Shown here one piece after another: positions 10,741 to 50,089 of a stretch of DNA of 64,000 nt (positions are counted from its first letter, which is position 1; each line of letters begins with the position of its first letter). Where the stretch lies: the sequence record OY720014. The stretch is one strand, 5' to 3'. A program made the translations under genes and the position numbers. The DNA is from Escherichia phage vB_Eco_QOTSP. Below the pieces are notes generated by a model that saw nothing but the letters and a program-made list of their open reading frames with translations, was not told the origin of the DNA and made no database searches.

Positions 10741-12439
10741 TTGTGTATTGACCAGATGAAATAGAACTCATAGATGCCATTTTTTCTGTCCAATCACCAC
10801 CAACGTCCCAATCAACTGTCCCAGCAACTTTCCAAGAAAGATTTCCATTTACTGTATTAGTCTGATTTCCTTCAACTAAAGTGGTAGCATCTCCTTTAAC
10901 TGTAATGTCAGCATTACCTTCAACTACAATAGTAACATTACCTTTAACTAGGATAGTTCCATTACCTTCAACCGTCTTAGTTTCATCGCCTCTAACAAAT
11001 ATCGTATTGCTTCCATCTATTTGGTGAAGACGATTATCCATGTTGTAATAAATTTCTGATCCACCGACGTTAGTCTTTTTATCACCGGCTACCAAAAAAT
11101 TACCATCAGCATTGGTTATATCATACAAATTATCAACAGTTTTTCTTGTTCTTCTTCCTGACGGTGATACTTCTTCATAAGTTCCAGTTGGATGAACTAA
11201 TCTGTATCGTTCTTGCCCAGGGGTATCATCAAATTCCTGAATATGTCCACTTTCAGTTTCCATTGTATGCACATAAGGATATTCGCCTTTATATGAAGAA
11301 ACTGGTTCTTTGAATAAAATTCTCGAGTCATTTGGAATAGGAGGGTCAGCAGGGTCAGAAGATTTAGCTACAGTCGCAGCCATTGCCGATAAAGACCTAG
11401 CTGGAGTTTTCACTTCAACACCATATGATTCCAAATTCCCCGTAAGAATAATCATGGTAACACGGGATGCACGGCCTTTTGTTTGTTGATACCACAATGA
11501 ATCACGACCGGCTTTATATGCTTTTTCCCAATCTCCTGCTAACATAGCAGTTAACATTGTGTTAAATTTAGCTACACCGCCAACACCCATCTGAAATGCC
11601 ATATTTTCTAATGCCATTTGACGAGAACGGTTGACAGCTTGCCAGACTGGTCCTACTTTAGAATGCGATTTAATGTCACGTTGCATATCAGCCAAATCAC
11701 GCTCAAATAAAGTCGTCGCTTCTTCCATTGTAATAGAACCTGGATTTCCTGTAATTTCACGACCAACTTGTTTTGATAAAACTTTATTAATTTGAGCCAT
11801 ATCACGAACTGGCTGCTTCATGATAAGATGACCAATACCAATTGTCGGATATCCTTCAGTATCCCAATAAACTTTTAGTCTTAATCCTTCATCACGGCGA
11901 AGCATTTCAGCCATTGACATGTTTGGATTATCATCAGTTGGAATCTCTGATAGTGGTCTATCATCGGGATTTATTGCGGTGTCTAAGTTACTATCTTGAA
12001 TAACATTAGAAGAGGAATCATATCCTACTTCTCCGCCTTGGTTTAGTACGTTAGTATCATTTCCTAAACGTCTAGGATATTGCCCAGTTGGGTCAGAAAA
12101 TCCTTCAAGTCTATTCGGTTTTTCGCGAACTATTCCACCATACGTGCCAAGGACAATTCCGTTAGTTTTCCATTTGTCTAAAAAATGACCATAAACTCTA
12201 GTTCCTTCTACCGGTCCAGTAACAGAACCTCCAATTCCTGACATTGCTGCAGAAGTTATAGGTTGAATAACTGACATCCATGGTAATTTTTCAGTTGGAA
12301 TACCCATTACATCACCTTGTGCTCTTTGTGGTGGATGCAGACCAACCACACGAACACGAACACGACCTAATTTTAATGGGTCCATTCTATCTTCAACAAC
12401 ACCAACAAACCAGTTGAGGTTATTACTTATCATTTCCAT
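10712..12439 (-). CDS. 5: baseplate hub subunit and tail lysozyme gp5
   Basis: 575-aa ORF; central lysozyme domain (EGLRLKVYWDTEGYPTIGIGH) and C-terminal VxGxxxxx beta-helix repeats. Confidence 0.95.
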   Translation of the reverse strand: MEMISNNLNWFVGVVEDRMDPLKLGRVRVRVVGLHPPQRAQGDVMGIPTEKLPWMSVIQPITSAAMSGIGGSVTGPVEGTRVYGHFLDKWKTNGIVLGTYGGIVREKPNRLEGFSDPTGQYPRRLGNDTNVLNQGGEVGYDSSSNVIQDSNLDTAINPDDRPLSEIPTDDNPNMSMAEMLRRDEGLRLKVYWDTEGYPTIGIGHLIMKQPVRDMAQINKVLSKQVGREITGNPGSITMEEATTLFERDLADMQRDIKSHSKVGPVWQAVNRSRQMALENMAFQMGVGGVAKFNTMLTAMLAGDWEKAYKAGRDSLWYQQTKGRASRVTMIILTGNLESYGVEVKTPARSLSAMAATVAKSSDPADPPIPNDSRILFKEPVSSYKGEYPYVHTMETESGHIQEFDDTPGQERYRLVHPTGTYEEVSPSGRRTRKTVDNLYDITNADGNFLVAGDKKTNVGGSEIYYNMDNRLHQIDGSNTIFVRGDETKTVEGNGTILVKGNVTIVVEGNADITVKGDATTLVEGNQTNTVNGNLSWKVAGTVDWDVGGDWTEKMASMSSISSGQYTIDGSRIDIG

Positions 12440-15749: not shown

Positions 15750-16458
<709 letters not shown>

Positions 16459-16465
<7 letters not shown>

Positions 16466-16488
16466 TACTGATGAGGTAGTGATACTAT
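16459..16488 (+). promoter_or_regulatory. early promoter (GTTTAC -35, TACTAT -10)
   Basis: GTTTAC, 18-nt spacer, TACTAT; -10 sits in the loop of inverted repeat gaggta...tacctc. Confidence 0.65.
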
Positions 16489-16519
16489 TACCTCATCAAA
16501 ATTAATTAGGAAAATAAAA

Positions 16520-16777
16520 ATGAAAACTTTCAAAGAGTTTGCTACAGAAACTATTATCACTGAATCTTCTCATGGTATGGAAGTAAAGCTTGGAATGGCT
16601 TTAGCTGAAGCTGAGCGTCTTTTTTCTCGTATTAAAGAACTTGCTGCTGCAGTCGATCCTTCATCTTTTAAAGGAGACCAAACTAAAGTTAAAGCACTTT
16701 TAGCATTATGCTCTGATGCAGGAGAAATCGCTAAGAACGGTTCTAAGATGAAGAAACGATTAGAAGATTTAAAATAA
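16520..16777 (+). CDS. small internal-protein-like protein with capsid-targeting-like N-terminus
   Basis: 85-aa ORF starting MKTFKEFATE, resembling the MKTYQEFIAE capsid-targeting sequence; own early promoter. Confidence 0.6.
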   Translation: MKTFKEFATETIITESSHGMEVKLGMALAEAERLFSRIKELAAAVDPSSFKGDQTKVKALLALCSDAGEIAKNGSKMKKRLEDLK

Positions 16778-16796
16778 TTTCACAAAGTTGTTTACA
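16766..16796 (+). repeat. 31-bp direct repeat, copy 2
   Basis: Identical to 16435..16465. Confidence 0.9.
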
Positions 16797-16819
16797 CGGG
16801 GTTTTAGTAGTGATACTAT
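16790..16819 (+). promoter_or_regulatory. early promoter (GTTTAC -35, TACTAT -10)
   Basis: GTTTAC, 18-nt spacer, TACTAT inside inverted repeat; followed by CCTATCAAAA box. Confidence 0.65.
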
Positions 16820-16855
16820 TACCCTATCAAAACAAATGTGAAATTGGAGAATAAA

Positions 16856-17089
16856 ATGAAAACGTATCAAGAATTTATTGCTGAAGCTGCTGATGTAAAA
16901 GTTGAGTTTATTTACATTGGCAAGAAAGATAAAATGGGCGAAATGCCTCATGGAGTTCTTCGTGATGCATTAGATAATTTCGGTCAACTCGCCGCAGAAG
17001 ATTACGGTGATAAAATTGTTGTTACTGGTCCGGCTGCAGTTATTGAAAAATGGGCAGCAGAAAATAAATCAATTTTTCGTAAAAAATGA
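16856..17089 (+). CDS. internal-protein-like protein (capsid targeting sequence MKTYQEFIAEA)
   Basis: ORF track 16838..17089 trimmed to ATG 16856 after GGAGAA; N-terminus MKTYQEFIAEA matches the T4 internal-protein targeting signal. Confidence 0.65.
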   Translation: MKTYQEFIAEAADVKVEFIYIGKKDKMGEMPHGVLRDALDNFGQLAAEDYGDKIVVTGPAAVIEKWAAENKSIFRKK

Positions 17090-17119
17090 GTTTACTTTTA
17101 GATAGGGTAGTGATACTAT
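17090..17119 (+). promoter_or_regulatory. early promoter (GTTTAC -35, TACTAT -10)
   Basis: GTTTAC immediately after the upstream stop; -10 in loop of gatagggta...taccctatc. Confidence 0.65.
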
Positions 17120-17147
17120 TACCCTATCAACTACTGAGGAGAATAAA

Positions 17148-17333
17148 ATGAAACGTTGTGAATTAATTCGAAATGTTGCTATTGCAATTTCTGCTTCCGC
17201 TTTTAGTTTTTCAATGTTTGTTGGATTTATATGCGGATTATTAACTACAGCAGAAAATGTGTTTTCACTTGTAGTAGCATTTTTAATTGGTTTAATTGCT
17301 ATCGTTATGGATAAAATTTCTAAAGGTGAATAA
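17148..17333 (+). CDS. small hydrophobic (membrane) protein
   Basis: 61-aa ORF with GGAGAA ribosome-binding site; predicted single transmembrane segment. Confidence 0.5.
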   Translation: MKRCELIRNVAIAISASAFSFSMFVGFICGLLTTAENVFSLVVAFLIGLIAIVMDKISKGE

Positions 17334-17744
17334 ATGAGTATTAACGAATATTATGTTTATGCCGGGGATTATGCAAATCCTTCTCATTTTGAAGGTAATT
17401 TAATACCTGATAAAGTTTTTAATACTCCTTTTGAAGCGTGGAGTTGGATTGAAAGTAAAAATGGATTTTCTTACCGTTATGTTGAAGTAACTGATTGGAG
17501 AGGAACTAAATATCCTAAAGACCATTATTACGTAAATCCATCTAAGGTAAATTTTCTTTTATTCGCAGGTGATAATTATTATCCTTGTGGTGGATATGAT
17601 GATTTAATTGCGTATGCTGAAACAGAAGATAAACTGCGTGATATCATTAAAGAAAATGAAAATAAACCGGATTATGGTTCCAATCGCTTTGACTGGTGGC
17701 AAATCGTAAATGCCCATACTCATGCTATCGTTGATAGAGGCTGA
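17334..17744 (+). CDS. hypothetical protein
   Basis: 136-aa ORF; start overlaps upstream stop. Confidence 0.6.
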   Translation: MSINEYYVYAGDYANPSHFEGNLIPDKVFNTPFEAWSWIESKNGFSYRYVEVTDWRGTKYPKDHYYVNPSKVNFLLFAGDNYYPCGGYDDLIAYAETEDKLRDIIKENENKPDYGSNRFDWWQIVNAHTHAIVDRG

Positions 17745-17767
17745 CAATGATTCTTTATGCTAAAGTA
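17742..17767 (+). repeat. 26-bp direct repeat, copy 1 (stop codon plus MILYAKV start)
   Basis: tgacaatgattctttatgctaaagta; 24 of 26 identical to 18197..18222. Confidence 0.85.
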
Positions 17768-17794
17768 CTACCTTATAGGAATGATATTGCTTAA
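17747..17794 (+). pseudogene. truncated duplicate of the N-terminus of the gene at 18202 (MILYAKV...)
   Basis: 15-codon ORF MILYAKVLPYRNDIA sharing its first 7 codons with the 18202 gene. Confidence 0.4.
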
Positions 17795-17818
17795 ATTAAT
17801 ATTGAGGTAGCTGAGACT

Positions 17819-18199
17819 ATGAAATTAATTAAATCGGGTGGAACCAGATGGGTACTACTAACACGTAAGTATGCTATTAAGTTCCCTATCCCCAAGACAT
17901 GGAAACACTTCGTGCAGGGTATGCTCAGCAATCTTACAGAAGGTCAGTGGAAGGGGTATGATAACAAGCACCTATGCCCAATAGCATACTCAAACAGATT
18001 TGGTCTCATGGTTGTGATGCACAAAGCAGAGCCAGTTGAGGATAAGGAGCTTTTTAAATCTGATTTGCAAAAGCTCTATAATGATGTTGATGGTGATGAA
18101 TGCAGAACGCTTGACCGTGATTTCTTTGAGTATGATGCCTTTCCAAAGAACTTTGGCTACTACAAAGGTAGATTGGTCAAGATAGACTACGGAGTGTGA
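17819..18199 (+). CDS. hypothetical protein in a GC-richer inserted segment
   Basis: 126-aa ORF with visibly higher GC than neighbours; flanked by the 26-bp direct repeats. Confidence 0.6.
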   Translation: MKLIKSGGTRWVLLTRKYAIKFPIPKTWKHFVQGMLSNLTEGQWKGYDNKHLCPIAYSNRFGLMVVMHKAEPVEDKELFKSDLQKLYNDVDGDECRTLDRDFFEYDAFPKNFGYYKGRLVKIDYGV

Positions 18200-18222
18200 T
18201 AATGATTCTTTATGCAAAAGTA
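18197..18222 (+). repeat. 26-bp direct repeat, copy 2
   Basis: tgataatgattctttatgcaaaagta. Confidence 0.85.
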
Positions 18223-18492
18223 TCATCCATTGAAAATGGATATAAATATGATCAAGAAGCAGCTAAAGCCTTGATTGATGATTATGGCATTTTAACATGT
18301 TTTGAAGTTGAAAAGGTTTACATTGACCGTTCATCTTCTCAGGTTAAATTAGTAAAAGAAGACCGTAAATTTAATACAGTAAATTTTGATTTCTTTATTG
18401 AAACAGAAAAAGGTCCTCTTGAATATGATATTTTCAAGAATCCTTTGGGTCTTGAATGTATTCAGAAAACGTATATTAATGCAGCGTGGTGA
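18202..18492 (+). CDS. hypothetical protein
   Basis: ORF track 18196..18492 trimmed to ATG 18202; 96 aa. Confidence 0.6.
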   Translation: MILYAKVSSIENGYKYDQEAAKALIDDYGILTCFEVEKVYIDRSSSQVKLVKEDRKFNTVNFDFFIETEKGPLEYDIFKNPLGLECIQKTYINAAW

Positions 18493-18494
18493 AA

Positions 18495-19089
18495 ATGAAT
18501 ATTTGTTTAGGTACTACAATTCCGCAGGGTTACGTAATTGATGTCACTACCTGGGAAAATGATGGTGACAACTATAAAACTAAAACACTGTTTGGCGTAG
18601 AAGAGCATGAAATCTTACAATTCCAATATCTTTTAAAGAAGTTTAAAAGCAGACATTCTAGTACTAAAGCTGAACGTTATTGTGGTAATGGCTTGTTCAG
18701 CGAGCAATCGCTTTTTATTTATGAATACTTGGTTGAAGGACTGTTCTCAGAACAACTTTATCCAGAATTCATTAAAAAGGTAGCAATCGCTTTTTATTTA
18801 TGAATACTTGGTTGAAGGACTGTTCTCAGAACAACTTTATCCAGAATTCATTAAAAAGGTCTTTGACATAGAAGTTGACCTTGGTAATAAATCCGAAGAA
18901 GACGAAGAACGTGTATTTGACTTATTCTTTGTGAATGGTAATAAAGTGCTTGAAGGACTTATTAATATTTTAGGCAGTGCTTCTGAGTATTATGATTATG
19001 ATTTTTTGCGTGTAGTTGAGAGTGTTAAATACTCTTATATAGAAAAAGAAATTGTTTTGCCGACCGTTAAAATGTTTAATTTGCTTTAA
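18495..19089 (+). pseudogene. hypothetical gene split into two ORFs by a 79-bp tandem duplication
   Basis: ORFs 18495..18803 and 18808..19089 join into one frame if one repeat copy is removed; peptide EGLFSEQLYPEFIKKV occurs in both. Confidence 0.5.
18703..18860 (+). repeat. perfect 79-bp tandem duplication (2 copies)
   Basis: 18703..18781 and 18782..18860 are identical; 79 is not a multiple of 3, so the frame shifts. Confidence 0.9.
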
Positions 19090-19415: not shown

Positions 19416-19461
19416 ATTTATGACTCGTCGTGAGACGCTCAGTTCTTTATTAGGGACTGAT

Positions 19462-20070
19462 ATGCATTTTTATCTTTATAAAATAACAAATAAAATTAAT
19501 AATAAAATTTATATTGGTGTGCATTCTACCGAAAATTTAGATGATGGATATATGGGTTCTGGTAAATTATTAAAAAGAGCCCAAGATAAATATGGTATAG
19601 AAAATTTTTCTAAAGAAATATTAGAGTATTTTGACGATAAAGAATCTATGCTTGAAGCCGAGAAAAATATTGTCACAGAAGAGTTTTTAAATAGACCAGA
19701 TGTGTATAATTTAAAACTTGGAGGTGAAGGTGGATGGGATCATATAAATAATTATCCTATGACAGATCAGCAACGCGAATTAATTTCATTGGGTGTTAAA
19801 AAGGCGCATTCTAACGGAAAATTAAAAGGATGGTCTTCAAATGGATTAATGAAGAATGGCTTTGCTGGTAAAACTCATTCTCAAGAAGCTAAACGTAAAA
19901 TAGCAAAAGCAAACGAAGCAAAAGTTTCTGCGGATGAAAGAAAAAGAAGAATAGAAATTTCTAAATTATATGATTTTTCTAAACGTGGCGAATTGTCTAA
20001 ATATGCTAAGCATATTGGCGTAAGTCATACTCAAGCAAAAAGAATTCTAAATCAAATTAACAATATATAA
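19462..20070 (+). CDS. GIY-YIG homing endonuclease (SegB-like), inside the tRNA cluster
   Basis: ORF track 19420..20070; N-terminal YLYKITNKINNKIYIGVH ... GYMGSG is the GIY-YIG motif; likely start at M15 (19462). Confidence 0.8.
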   Translation: MHFYLYKITNKINNKIYIGVHSTENLDDGYMGSGKLLKRAQDKYGIENFSKEILEYFDDKESMLEAEKNIVTEEFLNRPDVYNLKLGGEGGWDHINNYPMTDQQRELISLGVKKAHSNGKLKGWSSNGLMKNGFAGKTHSQEAKRKIAKANEAKVSADERKRRIEISKLYDFSKRGELSKYAKHIGVSHTQAKRILNQINNI

Positions 20071-21444: not shown

Positions 21445-21480
21445 CTTAGCCCCGACCGAAAGGTTGGGGCTTTTTGGTAT
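21445..21480 (+). repeat. 36-bp terminator-containing direct repeat, copy 1
   Basis: cttagccccgaccgaaaggttggggctttttggtat; one mismatch to 22004..22039. Confidence 0.85.
21449..21475 (+). terminator. rho-independent terminator (GAAA-loop hairpin plus U-tract)
   Basis: gccccgacc-gaaa-ggttggggc followed by ttttt; part of 36-bp repeat 21445..21480. Confidence 0.75.
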
Positions 21481-22003: not shown

Positions 22004-22039
22004 CTTAGCCCCGACCAAAAGGTTGGGGCTTTTTGGTAT
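22004..22039 (+). repeat. 36-bp terminator-containing direct repeat, copy 2
   Basis: cttagccccgaccaaaaggttggggctttttggtat. Confidence 0.85.
22008..22034 (+). terminator. rho-independent terminator
   Basis: Same hairpin plus U-tract as 21449..21475. Confidence 0.75.
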
Positions 22040-22240: not shown

Positions 22241-22504
22241 ATGGATAATTACGGCGAACTGTTCAACTTCTTTATGAAATGTGTTTCAGAAGATTTTGGT
22301 CGTACAGTGAATGATATTAAAGTTATCGGTCCTGATCATCCGATGTTTGAAACTTACGCAGTAATGGGTAATGAAGATGGTCAGTGGTATACTGTAAAGG
22401 TTGTGATTAACATGTTCACTGCTGAAGGTTATGTTAAACTGTCTTCTAAAGTTTACCATGATAACGATGAAATCGCAGAAGAATATTTCAATAATATGAA
22501 ATAA
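22241..22504 (+). CDS. hypothetical protein
   Basis: ORF track 22229..22504 (TTG) trimmed to ATG 22241 after GGAGAA; 87 aa. Confidence 0.6.
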   Translation: MDNYGELFNFFMKCVSEDFGRTVNDIKVIGPDHPMFETYAVMGNEDGQWYTVKVVINMFTAEGYVKLSSKVYHDNDEIAEEYFNNMK

Positions 22505-22534
22505 GTTTACACGGGCTCATGATTGAGATATTAT
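22505..22534 (+). promoter_or_regulatory. early promoter (GTTTAC -35, TATTAT -10)
   Basis: GTTTAC directly after the upstream stop; -10 within inverted repeat ctcat...atgag. Confidence 0.6.
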
Positions 22535-22560
22535 GAGCCTATAACTTTGAGGAGAACATT

Positions 22561-26856: not shown

Positions 26857-27330
26857 ATGAAAACATATCAAGAATTTATCGCTGAAGCAGCTATTAATTC
26901 TCAAATTATTGCTGAATCTTTTACTGATCTTTTGAAATTTAAAAAAGGTCAAAAAATCACTGCTGTATTGGATGATGGTACAGAAGTTGAGATGGATGTA
27001 CAGGGATATAATTATGCAGTAGATGGAAAACTGTATAATAAATCTCATGCTAAATTTGATTCATTTGACGACTTTGTTAATACAGTTGAAGATGAAAAAA
27101 CTCGTAGATCCATTGCAACTGGTGATGCTAAGGTTCTTATGGCACATGGTCATGAACGCATTCGCGCTAAACAGAATAAAATGGGTGAAGATAATTTCGC
27201 ATTAGTTGGTTATCAATCTGGTAAACAAACTTATGGCTATCAACGTACTGCTACCATGTATAATAAAAATGGTAAAATTGCCTTTGTGAATAGTAAAGGT
27301 TCTATTCAGTACGTTAAATCGTTCAAATAA
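26857..27330 (+). CDS. internal protein (capsid targeting sequence MKTYQEFIAEA)
   Basis: 157-aa ORF with the canonical internal-protein N-terminal targeting signal; next to denV as T4 ipII/ipIII. Confidence 0.7.
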   Translation: MKTYQEFIAEAAINSQIIAESFTDLLKFKKGQKITAVLDDGTEVEMDVQGYNYAVDGKLYNKSHAKFDSFDDFVNTVEDEKTRRSIATGDAKVLMAHGHERIRAKQNKMGEDNFALVGYQSGKQTYGYQRTATMYNKNGKIAFVNSKGSIQYVKSFK

Positions 27331-28344: not shown

Positions 28345-28707
28345 ATGAAAGCATATCAAATTCTTGAAGGCACACATAAAGGTACTATTTATTTTGAAGA
28401 TGGTATTCAAGCACGAATTATTGTCTCTAAAACCTTTAAAGAGGACTCTTTTGTAGACCCGGAAATTTTCTACGGTTTGCATGCCCGTGAAATTGAAATT
28501 GAAACACAACCTACAGTTAAAATTGAAGGTGGTCAACACCTGAACGTTAACGTTCTGCGTCGCGAAACTCTGGAAGATGCAGTTAAGCATCCGGAAAAAT
28601 ATCCGCAGCTGACCATCCGTGTATCCGGTTATGCAGTTCGCTTTAACTCTCTGACTCCGGAACAGCAGCGCGACGTTATCGCTCGTACCTTTACTGAGAG
28701 TTTGTAA
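28345..28707 (+). CDS. autonomous glycyl-radical cofactor (GrcA/YfiD)-like protein with phage-type N-terminus
   Basis: 120 aa; C-terminal ~60 aa ([60 protein letters not shown]) near-identical to E. coli GrcA incl. RVSGY glycyl-radical motif. Confidence 0.8.
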
Positions 28708-37392: not shown

Positions 37393-37416
37393 ATTTCAAA
37401 AATTTTTCACAAAACG

Positions 37417-37446
37417 GTTTACATGGTCTGTAGTTGTTGATACTAT
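37417..37446 (+). promoter_or_regulatory. early promoter (GTTTAC -35, TACTAT -10)
   Basis: tttcacaaaacgGTTTACa, 18-nt spacer, TACTAT; CCTATCAAAA box. Confidence 0.65.
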
Positions 37447-37484
37447 AGACCTATCAAAACAAATGAGTAAATTGGAGATACAAA

Positions 37485-38800: not shown

Positions 38801-39115
38801 ATGGAGGTAATGATGTTATACTCAAAGGCTCGTGAAATTTATGAAACTAAAATTAAAGAAGCAGTATTTCAGTTCGCAACAACGATGCGATGGACAAATG
38901 ATTGGGAGTATTCAAAAAATCATAAGAAGCCCTTGGTGACAAGAAAGGCTCATATGTTAGTGTTAATAGACCGTGAGCAGATTAAAGCCCGAGAAGCCCT
39001 CCAGAATCATAAAAAGGCTGCCTTTGAATGGTTTATGGATAACACTGCTCCTGAGACTAAGAAAGCAGTGAGCGCGTGGTTCAGTGGAAAAAATTGTGAA
39101 AGAAGTTTCTTTTAG
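38801..39115 (+). CDS. hypothetical protein
   Basis: 104-aa ORF; true start may be ATG near 38810-38813 after GGAGG. Confidence 0.5.
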   Translation: MEVMMLYSKAREIYETKIKEAVFQFATTMRWTNDWEYSKNHKKPLVTRKAHMLVLIDREQIKAREALQNHKKAAFEWFMDNTAPETKKAVSAWFSGKNCERSFF

Positions 39116-39117
39116 TT

Positions 39118-39147
39118 GTTTACAAGACCGTTCCTCTGTGGTACTAT
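39118..39147 (+). promoter_or_regulatory. early promoter (GTTTAC -35, TACTAT -10)
   Basis: GTTTAC, 18-nt spacer, TACTAT; ACAACTATCAA box. Confidence 0.65.
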
Positions 39148-39175
39148 ACAACTATCAACTACGGAGGAACAGAAA

Positions 39176-46534: not shown

Positions 46535-48348
46535 CAATTGAAAAAGAAATTGAAGGATTGATTCATAAAACTAATAAAGACCTTTTAAACGAGAATGCTA
46601 ATAAAGATTCTCGTGTTTTTCCAACTCAACGGGACCTTATGGCTGGTATTGTGTCTAAACACATTGCCAAAAATATGGTCCCGTCTTTTATTATGAAAGC
46701 GCATGAAAGCGGAATTATCCATTTCCATGATATTGATTATTCCCCTGCTCTTCCATTTACTAATTGCTGTTTAGTAGATTTAAAAGGAATGCTTGAGAAC
46801 GGATTTAAGCTTGGTAATGCGCAGATTGAAACTCCTAAATCAATCGGTGTTGCTACTGCAATTATGGCACAAATTACTGCGCAAGTTGCTTCCCATCAAT
46901 ACGGCGGAACGACTTTTGCTAATGTAGATAAAGTACTTTCTCCTTATGTTAAACGCACCTATGCAAAACATATTGAGGATGCAGAAAAATGGCAAATCGC
47001 TGATGCGTTGAATTATGCTCAATCTAAAACAGAAAAAGACGTATACGATGCATTCCAAGCTTATGAATATGAAGTAAATACTCTCTTTAGTTCAAACGGG
47101 CAAACACCTTTTGTAACAATTACATTTGGTACGGGAACTGACTGGACTGAACGAATGATTCAGAAAGCAATTCTGAAAAATCGTATTAAAGGTCTCGGTC
47201 GTGATGGGATAACTCCTATTTTTCCTAAGCTTGTTATGTTCGTCGAAGAAGGCGTTAATCTTTACAAAGACGATCCGAGCTATGATATTAAGCTGCTTGC
47301 TCTAGAGTGTGCAAGCAAAAGGATGTATCCTGATATTATTTCAGCTAAGAACAATAAAGCTATTACTGGTTCATCTGTTCCTGTTTCTCCAATGGGTTGC
47401 CGTAGTTTCTTGAGCGTATGGAAAGATTCGACTGGTAATGAAATTCTTGATGGACGTAATAATCTTGGTGTTGTAACACTGAATCTTCCTCGTATTGCAT
47501 TAGATTCTTATATTGGAACACAGTTCAATGAACAGAAATTTGTTGAATTGTTCAATGAACGAATGGATTTGTGTTTTGAAGCTTTGATGTGTAGAATTAG
47601 TTCCTTAAAAGGAGTTAAAGCGACTGTTGCTCCTATTCTTTACCAAGAAGGTGCATTTGGGGTTCGTCTTAAACCTGATGACGACATAATTGAGTTATTT
47701 AAAAACGGTAGAAGTTCAGTGTCTTTAGGATACATTGGTATTCACGAATTGAATATTCTTGTCGGTCGTGATATTGGACAAGAAATTTTAACTAAAATGA
47801 ATGCCCATCTTAAACAGTGGACTGAAAGAACCGGATTTGCTTTTAGTTTATATTCGACTCCTGCTGAAAACCTTTGTTATCGCTTCTGTAAACTTGATAC
47901 AGAAAAATATGGAAGTGTAAAAGATGTTACCGATAAAGGCTGGTACACTAACAGTTTCCATGTTTCAGTAGAAGAAAATATTACTCCGTTTGAAAAGATT
48001 TCTCGTGAAGCGCCATATCATTTCATTGCGACAGGTGGTCACATTTCTTATGTTGAACTTCCTGATATGAAAAATAACCTAAAAGGTCTTGAGGCTGTAT
48101 GGGATTATGCTGCACAACATTTAGATTATTTTGGTGTTAACATGCCGGTAGATAAATGTTTTACATGCGGAAGTACCCATGAAATGACTCCTACTGAAAA
48201 CGGATTTGTTTGTTCTATTTGTGGAGAAACTGATCCTAAAAAGATGAACACAATAAGAAGAACATGTGGTTATTTGGGAAATCCGAACGAACGCGGATTT
48301 AATCTCGGTAAAAATAAAGAAATCATGCATAGGGTTAAACACCAATGA
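46531..48348 (+). CDS. nrdD: anaerobic ribonucleoside-triphosphate reductase NrdD (uninterrupted)
   Basis: 605-aa continuous ORF; C-terminal glycyl-radical motif RRTCGYLG and zinc-ribbon CxxC pairs. Confidence 0.95.
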   Translation: MTIEKEIEGLIHKTNKDLLNENANKDSRVFPTQRDLMAGIVSKHIAKNMVPSFIMKAHESGIIHFHDIDYSPALPFTNCCLVDLKGMLENGFKLGNAQIETPKSIGVATAIMAQITAQVASHQYGGTTFANVDKVLSPYVKRTYAKHIEDAEKWQIADALNYAQSKTEKDVYDAFQAYEYEVNTLFSSNGQTPFVTITFGTGTDWTERMIQKAILKNRIKGLGRDGITPIFPKLVMFVEEGVNLYKDDPSYDIKLLALECASKRMYPDIISAKNNKAITGSSVPVSPMGCRSFLSVWKDSTGNEILDGRNNLGVVTLNLPRIALDSYIGTQFNEQKFVELFNERMDLCFEALMCRISSLKGVKATVAPILYQEGAFGVRLKPDDDIIELFKNGRSSVSLGYIGIHELNILVGRDIGQEILTKMNAHLKQWTERTGFAFSLYSTPAENLCYRFCKLDTEKYGSVKDVTDKGWYTNSFHVSVEENITPFEKISREAPYHFIATGGHISYVELPDMKNNLKGLEAVWDYAAQHLDYFGVNMPVDKCFTCGSTHEMTPTENGFVCSICGETDPKKMNTIRRTCGYLGNPNERGFNLGKNKEIMHRVKHQ

Positions 48349-49780: not shown

Positions 49781-49853
49781 TCGCATTCTGTATATTACCA
49801 TTCTAAGCTATCGTTCCTTTCTTATCATTCCCTAAAATATTTTTCACAAAGTT

Positions 49854-49883
49854 GTTTACAACAAGTTCAAACCGTGGTATTAT
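49854..49883 (+). promoter_or_regulatory. early promoter (GTTTAC -35, TATTAT -10)
   Basis: tttcacaaagttGTTTACa, 18-nt spacer, TGgTATTAT. Confidence 0.65.
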
Positions 49884-50089
49884 TAACATATGAATTACCT
49901 TTGAGGAATTGATATGGTTGTGGTTGATAAAGAAATTAAAAAGGGGGCAGTATTATCTCATTAATGGTAATGCTGTTCGTGTTACTCATGTAAATAGTTT
50001 TGAAGTTTGCTATATTATACTCAAGTTACATAAACGCATGATTTGCGATCGTGCTGCATTTAGTTCAGTTGCTAAGGAAATTAAACTCC

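Follow-up and report, generated by a model that had tools for sequence, protein, structure and literature searches.

The 79-bp repeat and the gene it divides

The window analysed here is the whole stretch of 64,000 nucleotides taken from a T4-like Tequatrovirus, Escherichia phage vB_Eco_QOTSP (OY720014.1). On the upstream side of 10 clustered tRNA genes, between a trna.2 homologue (18202–18492) and the gene for tRNA-Gln (19176), the window contains two short ORFs on the same strand and, across the gap between them, a perfect tandem repeat. The two copies of the repeat agree at 79 of 79 nucleotides (TRF score 316, exactly 2.0 copies; Table 1). The original prediction, made from the letters of the window, had placed a perfect 79-bp tandem duplication at 18703–18860, and all of its coordinates were found to be right when identity and frames were recomputed. 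No second perfect tandem repeat was found in the 64-kb window (n = 1), nor does the 79-mer occur anywhere else within it. A chance origin could be excluded, the product of 64,000 and 4^-79 being effectively zero.

The boundaries of the repeat are sharp. It cannot be extended by one base on either side, as position 18702 is G where 18781 is T, and 18861 is C where 18782 is A. When microhomology of the kind left by genuine slippage or illegitimate recombination was looked for, zero shared bases were counted at both boundaries. Hairpins and quasi-palindromes able to template a real duplication were also sought in the region, where only weak, imperfect inverted repeats could be found.

The upstream ORF may start at the ATG at 18495 or at a GTG at 18486, giving 102 or 105 amino acids, and ends at a TGA (18801–18803) inside copy 2. 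Because 79 = 26 × 3 + 1, the frame is shifted by +1 on entering the second copy. The second frame is open from 18784, with TTG 18808 as its first possible start and its end at 19089; the junction itself creates a TAG at 18781–18783, just before this second open frame. That the frame stops at 18803 and resumes from 18808, as had been claimed, was borne out by these ORF calls. It had further been claimed that a single-copy version would form one continuous ORF, and deletion of one copy in silico did indeed give a single ORF of 171 amino acids from the ATG, or 174 from the GTG.

The restored protein matched phrog_2290 with an E value of 2e-68, a family whose function is unknown, and a Pfam search with the same protein matched no family. 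At 171 amino acids it is 100% identical to CUL02375.1 (phage slur07), to CCI89033.1 (phage phiD1), and to the proteins of many other phages, the extra copy being the sole defect of the gene. The two deposited fragments, CAJ1092911.1 and CAJ1092913.1, are both from vB_Eco_QOTSP, and both were found in NCBI nr only. When the corresponding locus of T4 was compared, the gene was missing there.

Table 1. Features of the repeat locus, and copies of a recurring motif, in the 64,000-nt window of phage vB_Eco_QOTSP
Feature	Position	Strand	Description
Copy 1	18703–18781	none	Genuine gene sequence; starts at the second base of codon 70 and ends at the second base of codon 96 (171 codons in all)
Copy 2	18782–18860	none	Identical to copy 1; junction missing from collections; 79-bp signature shared with sister genomes
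Junction	18781/18782		Sequence ...TTCATTAAAAAGGT / AGCAATCGCTTTTTAT...; 30-mer TTCATTAAAAAGGTAGCAATCGCTTTTTAT
Truncated ORF	18495–18803	+	102 aa, being 96 native residues followed by AIAFYL; deposited as CAJ1092911.1 (exact match)
C-terminal fragment ORF	18808–19089	+	93 aa, TTG start; deposited as CAJ1092913.1
Gene with one copy deleted	18495–19089	+	171 aa; phrog_2290
Motif of about 53 nt, 7 copies	16447–16499, 16778–16830, 17078–17130, 22493–22545, 37405–37457, 39106–39158, 49842–49894		

Relatives of the locus and searches for the junction

Matches to the locus were obtained from 682 phage records. For a query of 901 nt, the 40 matches listed (of the 682) all span 806–823 nt, apart from two teqhad rows at 885 nt; spans of this size for such a query indicate that the relatives have one copy. 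In an alignment with five relatives, the flanks are identical and the exact 79-nt unit is present once in each, leaving a clean 79-nt insertion in the window alone. A comparison with orthologues had been proposed alongside the original prediction; when it was run, one copy was found in every related phage inspected.

The orthologues are single uninterrupted ORFs of 166–173 amino acids, the exception being a metagenome-assembled relative from ENA ERZ27286912 with a different lesion. A conserved two-frame architecture, by which programmed recoding or a split gene could have been recognised, was not seen among them. In the exceptional relative (L032, contig k141_205737, 5156–5670), the orthologue is called as two ORFs of 119 and 52 amino acids over a total of 515 nt, which suggests a 1-nt indel, a lesion unlike that of the window. 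Elsewhere the window is clean: when 133 ORFs of AndreasVesalius (the closest relative in this comparison) are matched at at least 80% identity, this is the one gene whose match falls in two frames.

The 40/41-mer spanning the QOTSP junction was then used as a query. No match was obtained in 50,697 phage records (OY720014.1 itself not being among them), in IMG/VR viral contigs or JGI metagenome contigs, or in GTDB genome contigs, E. coli genomes, or plasmids. These negative results are meaningful because like searches recover junctions that are present in a collection, as was the case for the two sister phages described below.

The same phage was also sought in other assemblies by way of neighbouring proteins, using as queries the trna.2 homologue, gp5, a 77-aa internal protein, a SegB-like ORF, and the restored 171-aa protein. 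This search returned about 40 related loci at 95–98% identity, none of which was the same phage, with one possible exception. A short contig from a public SRA-run assembly (L027; Logan SRR27282248 contig 62734, 1,748 bp) is 100% identical to positions 16767–18514 of the window and ends 189 nt before the repeat. It shares with the window a rare gene arrangement (77, 61, 136, 126, and 96 aa) and could come from QOTSP itself or from a phage very close to it.

Other features of the window

Next to the trna.2-like gene, a 31-nt direct repeat (17737–17767 and 18192–18222, 87% identical) bounds a 455-bp module that holds a 126-aa ORF (17819–18199). The 31-nt repeat is a second copy of the beginning of the trna.2-like gene, with a 15-codon remnant ("MILYAKV...") at 17748. 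Some relatives have the module (L003, L006, and L044, for example) and others, such as L004 and L012, do not, a pattern that resembles natural insertion/deletion polymorphism.

Small ORFs at 16520–16777, 16856–17089, and 26857–27330 open with MKTFKEF... or MKTYQEFIAEA, starts that we take to resemble the leader by which T4 internal proteins are targeted to the capsid. Of the proteins near the locus, the 77-aa product of the ORF at 16856–17089 diverges most, its best match among loci L001–L024 being 92%; exact copies were found only in JX128259.1, ON506924.1, and three short metagenomic/SRA-assembly contigs. A motif of about 53 nt (GTTTACA ... GATACTAT ... ATCAA) recurs seven times upstream of small ORFs (Table 1), and these sites look like T4 early promoter regions.

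Within the 10-tRNA cluster, between tRNA-Gly and tRNA-Ser, lies an ORF for a GIY-YIG (SegB-like) homing endonuclease (19420–20070), which varies among relatives both in presence and in position. A terminator-like element, in which a T run follows a 36-nt G+C-rich hairpin, occurs at 21445–21480 and again at 22004–22039, the two being 97% identical and 559 nt apart. Finally, an imperfect 24-nt tandem repeat (4.5 copies, 73% match) was noted at 10865–10972 in the gp5 gene; it is consistent with the octapeptide repeats of the C-terminal β-helix of gp5.

Assembly pipeline and sister genomes

QOTSP is a phage of the Durham Collection, deposited as OY720014.1 (168,413 bp), and Teqskov is reported as its closest relative (PMC13390438). 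According to the same source, Illumina paired reads of 150 or 76 bp were obtained, on a NextSeq for QOTSP and vB_Eco_Some and on a MiSeq for vB_Eco_TB37. MEGAHIT v1.2.9, with its settings left at default, produced the QOTSP assembly; each genome was compared with its closest relative and "rearranged using SnapGene" (PMC13390438). This rearrangement step in the pipeline offers a way for contig ends to reach the interior of a record; the strand orientation of the window is that of Teqskov, the reference for the rearrangement.

The k-list of MEGAHIT is 21, 29, 39, 59, 79, 99, 119, and 141, and the overlaps between contig ends equal its maxK (COBRA, PMC10914622). The length of the QOTSP repeat is odd and equal to a de Bruijn k, 79 being one of the values in the default list of the very assembler used for the record. 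MEGAHIT lowers k-max to about read length + 20; from the length of the repeat and from this behaviour with 76-bp reads, we infer that the final k was 79. Two points weaken this step from 76-bp reads to a final k of 79 and to that extent count against an assembly artefact, namely that the read length is given just as "150 or 76 bp" and that TB37 was sequenced on another instrument. A SPAdes k of 77 with 2 chance-matching bases (P about 0.12) and an IDBA_UD maxk of 80 minus 1 were also considered as sources of the number 79; both are needless given that the paper names MEGAHIT. A k-mer overlap would show no chance extension with a probability of 0.53, so the absence of microhomology at the QOTSP repeat is as expected for such an overlap.

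Two sister phages from the same pipeline were scanned for repeats of the same kind: vB_Eco_Some (OZ034686.1) over its first 50 kb and last 1.8 kb, and vB_Eco_TB37 (OZ035850.1) over its whole length of 166,495 bp. Some was likewise assembled with MEGAHIT and then rearranged (PMC13390438). Exactly one perfect tandem repeat was found in the first 50 kb of Some, with a period of 79 (46631–46789). TB37 also has exactly one genome-wide, again with a period of 79 (139,579–139,737 of the record; L055 41580–41738). The locus of the Some repeat is single-copy in QOTSP (window 28613–28691), as is the locus of the QOTSP repeat in Some. A search of the 50,697 phage records recovered each sister junction, that of Some and that of TB37, from its own record only. 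All three genomes examined thus carry one private perfect 79-bp duplication, at unrelated loci. The k of the assembler has been reproduced three times, which independent biological events would not do.

The genes struck differ between the sister phages. In Some, the repeat sits within the gene for an "autonomous glycyl radical cofactor", the annotated CDS of which is 381 nt long against the usual 363 nt. In TB37, the 5′ end of nrdA is hit, and the repeat there gives rise to the small spurious ORFs TB37_187 and TB37_188.

Origin of the duplication

Taken together, we consider it about 95% probable that the duplication is an untrimmed MEGAHIT contig-end overlap at k = 79, made internal by manual rotation of the contig, and not biology. 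The original prediction had offered two origins, an assembly artefact and a very recent duplication that inactivates the gene; the former was strengthened by the MEGAHIT k-list and by the sister duplications, and for the latter no support was obtained. If the duplication is an assembly leftover, it follows that the real phage carries this gene unbroken.

The artefact may be pictured as follows. T4-like genomes being circularly permuted, a short-read assembly would close on itself, and a de Bruijn assembler would then cut the circle at an arbitrary point, leaving a linear contig whose first k bases equal its last k. MEGAHIT, run at defaults on short reads, would have ended at k = 79. The contig would have been cut and re-joined in SnapGene for collinearity with Teqskov with the overlap left in, which would have brought the contig ends side by side in the interior of the record, to be read there as a perfect tandem repeat of 79 bp; the junction in Table 1 would mark the former join of end and start. 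By chance, the repeat would have fallen in a 171-codon gene and shifted its frame.

Counterparts of such a repeat have been described. The lengths of direct terminal repeats accumulate at odd k-mer values (CheckV, PMC8116208), and a 127-bp SPAdes k-mer artefact in phage Spoks was removed by hand (PMC12007190). Like the k-mer terminal repeats known from CheckV and COBRA, the QOTSP repeat is exact, has an odd length equal to the k of the assembler, is placed arbitrarily with respect to genes, and occurs once per genome; unlike them, it is internal and tandem, the contig having apparently been rotated by hand before deposition. With the Spoks redundancy it would share both the mechanism and the remedy, deletion of one copy, whereas the length is 79 with MEGAHIT in place of 127 with SPAdes, and trimming appears to have been skipped in QOTSP, Some, and TB37.

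A similar artefact could also arise by another route, if two MEGAHIT contigs sharing a 79-bp end had been concatenated by hand against a reference. Adjacent MEGAHIT contigs do share ends of maxK length (COBRA, PMC10914622), and the assemblies were arranged manually against a reference (PMC13390438). Nevertheless, we judge this route unlikely, given that the whole genome of TB37 has exactly one repeat, as for the closure of a single circle, whereas multi-contig joins usually leave several; moreover, the 79-mer is found nowhere else in the window, which leaves no evident branch of the graph here. We infer that the join is the closure of one circular contig and not of two contigs. Both routes give the same final sequence and lead to the same practical verdict.

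It is very improbable that the phage stock itself acquired a genuine 79-bp tandem duplication a very short time ago, through replication slippage or illegitimate recombination, and that a non-essential accessory gene was thereby inactivated or split. The deposited sequence does contain the repeat, and the lesion would be tolerable since the gene is dispensable, T4 being without it and the L032 orthologue being split into 119 and 52 amino acids. T4 makes tandem duplications, classically in rII, and the QOTSP repeat resembles the rII duplications in being a head-to-tail repeat able to shift a frame. It differs from them in having no microhomology at its ends, and real duplications are not expected to fall at the k of an assembler across sister genomes. 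Illegitimate recombination in T4 and E. coli normally uses short repeats, which the endpoints do not show, and a direct repeat of 79 bp would readily be collapsed by T4 recombination.

A real duplication would further need three independent private events of exactly 79 bp, at unrelated loci and within one pipeline, and the length would have to be one in the k-list of the assembler; the junction was present in none of the six collections searched. It is accordingly hard to credit that a conserved phrog_2290 gene has been cut into two overlapping fragments by a duplication whose length equals the k of the assembler by chance. The literature was searched for real T4 tandem duplications and for 79-bp repeats, and nothing useful was found.

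A functional repeat or recoding, in which programmed frameshifting or a regulatory direct repeat yields two polypeptides, is so improbable that it may be set aside: reinitiation is conceivable in principle, the stop at 18801–18803 lying 4 nt ahead of TTG 18808, but every relative inspected is single-copy with a single ORF of 166–173 amino acids (save the differently split L032), no Shine-Dalgarno sequence precedes 18808, the inverted repeats of the region are weak and imperfect only, and the sister-genome evidence accounts for the repeat without any function.

Consequences for public records

On the reading of the duplication as an untrimmed contig-end overlap, three deposited genomes would be affected and need correction. 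OY720014.1 (QOTSP) would be 79 bp too long, with the spurious CDS CAJ1092911.1 and CAJ1092913.1 replacing one 171-aa gene. The same 79-base defect would be present in OZ034686.1 (Some), in the gene for the glycyl-radical cofactor, and in OZ035850.1 (TB37), at the 5′ end of nrdA. Unless they are corrected, artefacts of this type lead to false pseudogenes and to false "gene fission" in pangenome and protein-cluster databases. An internal perfect tandem repeat with the length of a common assembler k (55, 77, 79, 99, 119, 127, or 141) would serve as a cheap automatic flag. For the biology of the phage, the duplication would have no significance, and the value of recognising it lies in the quality control of these three public records.
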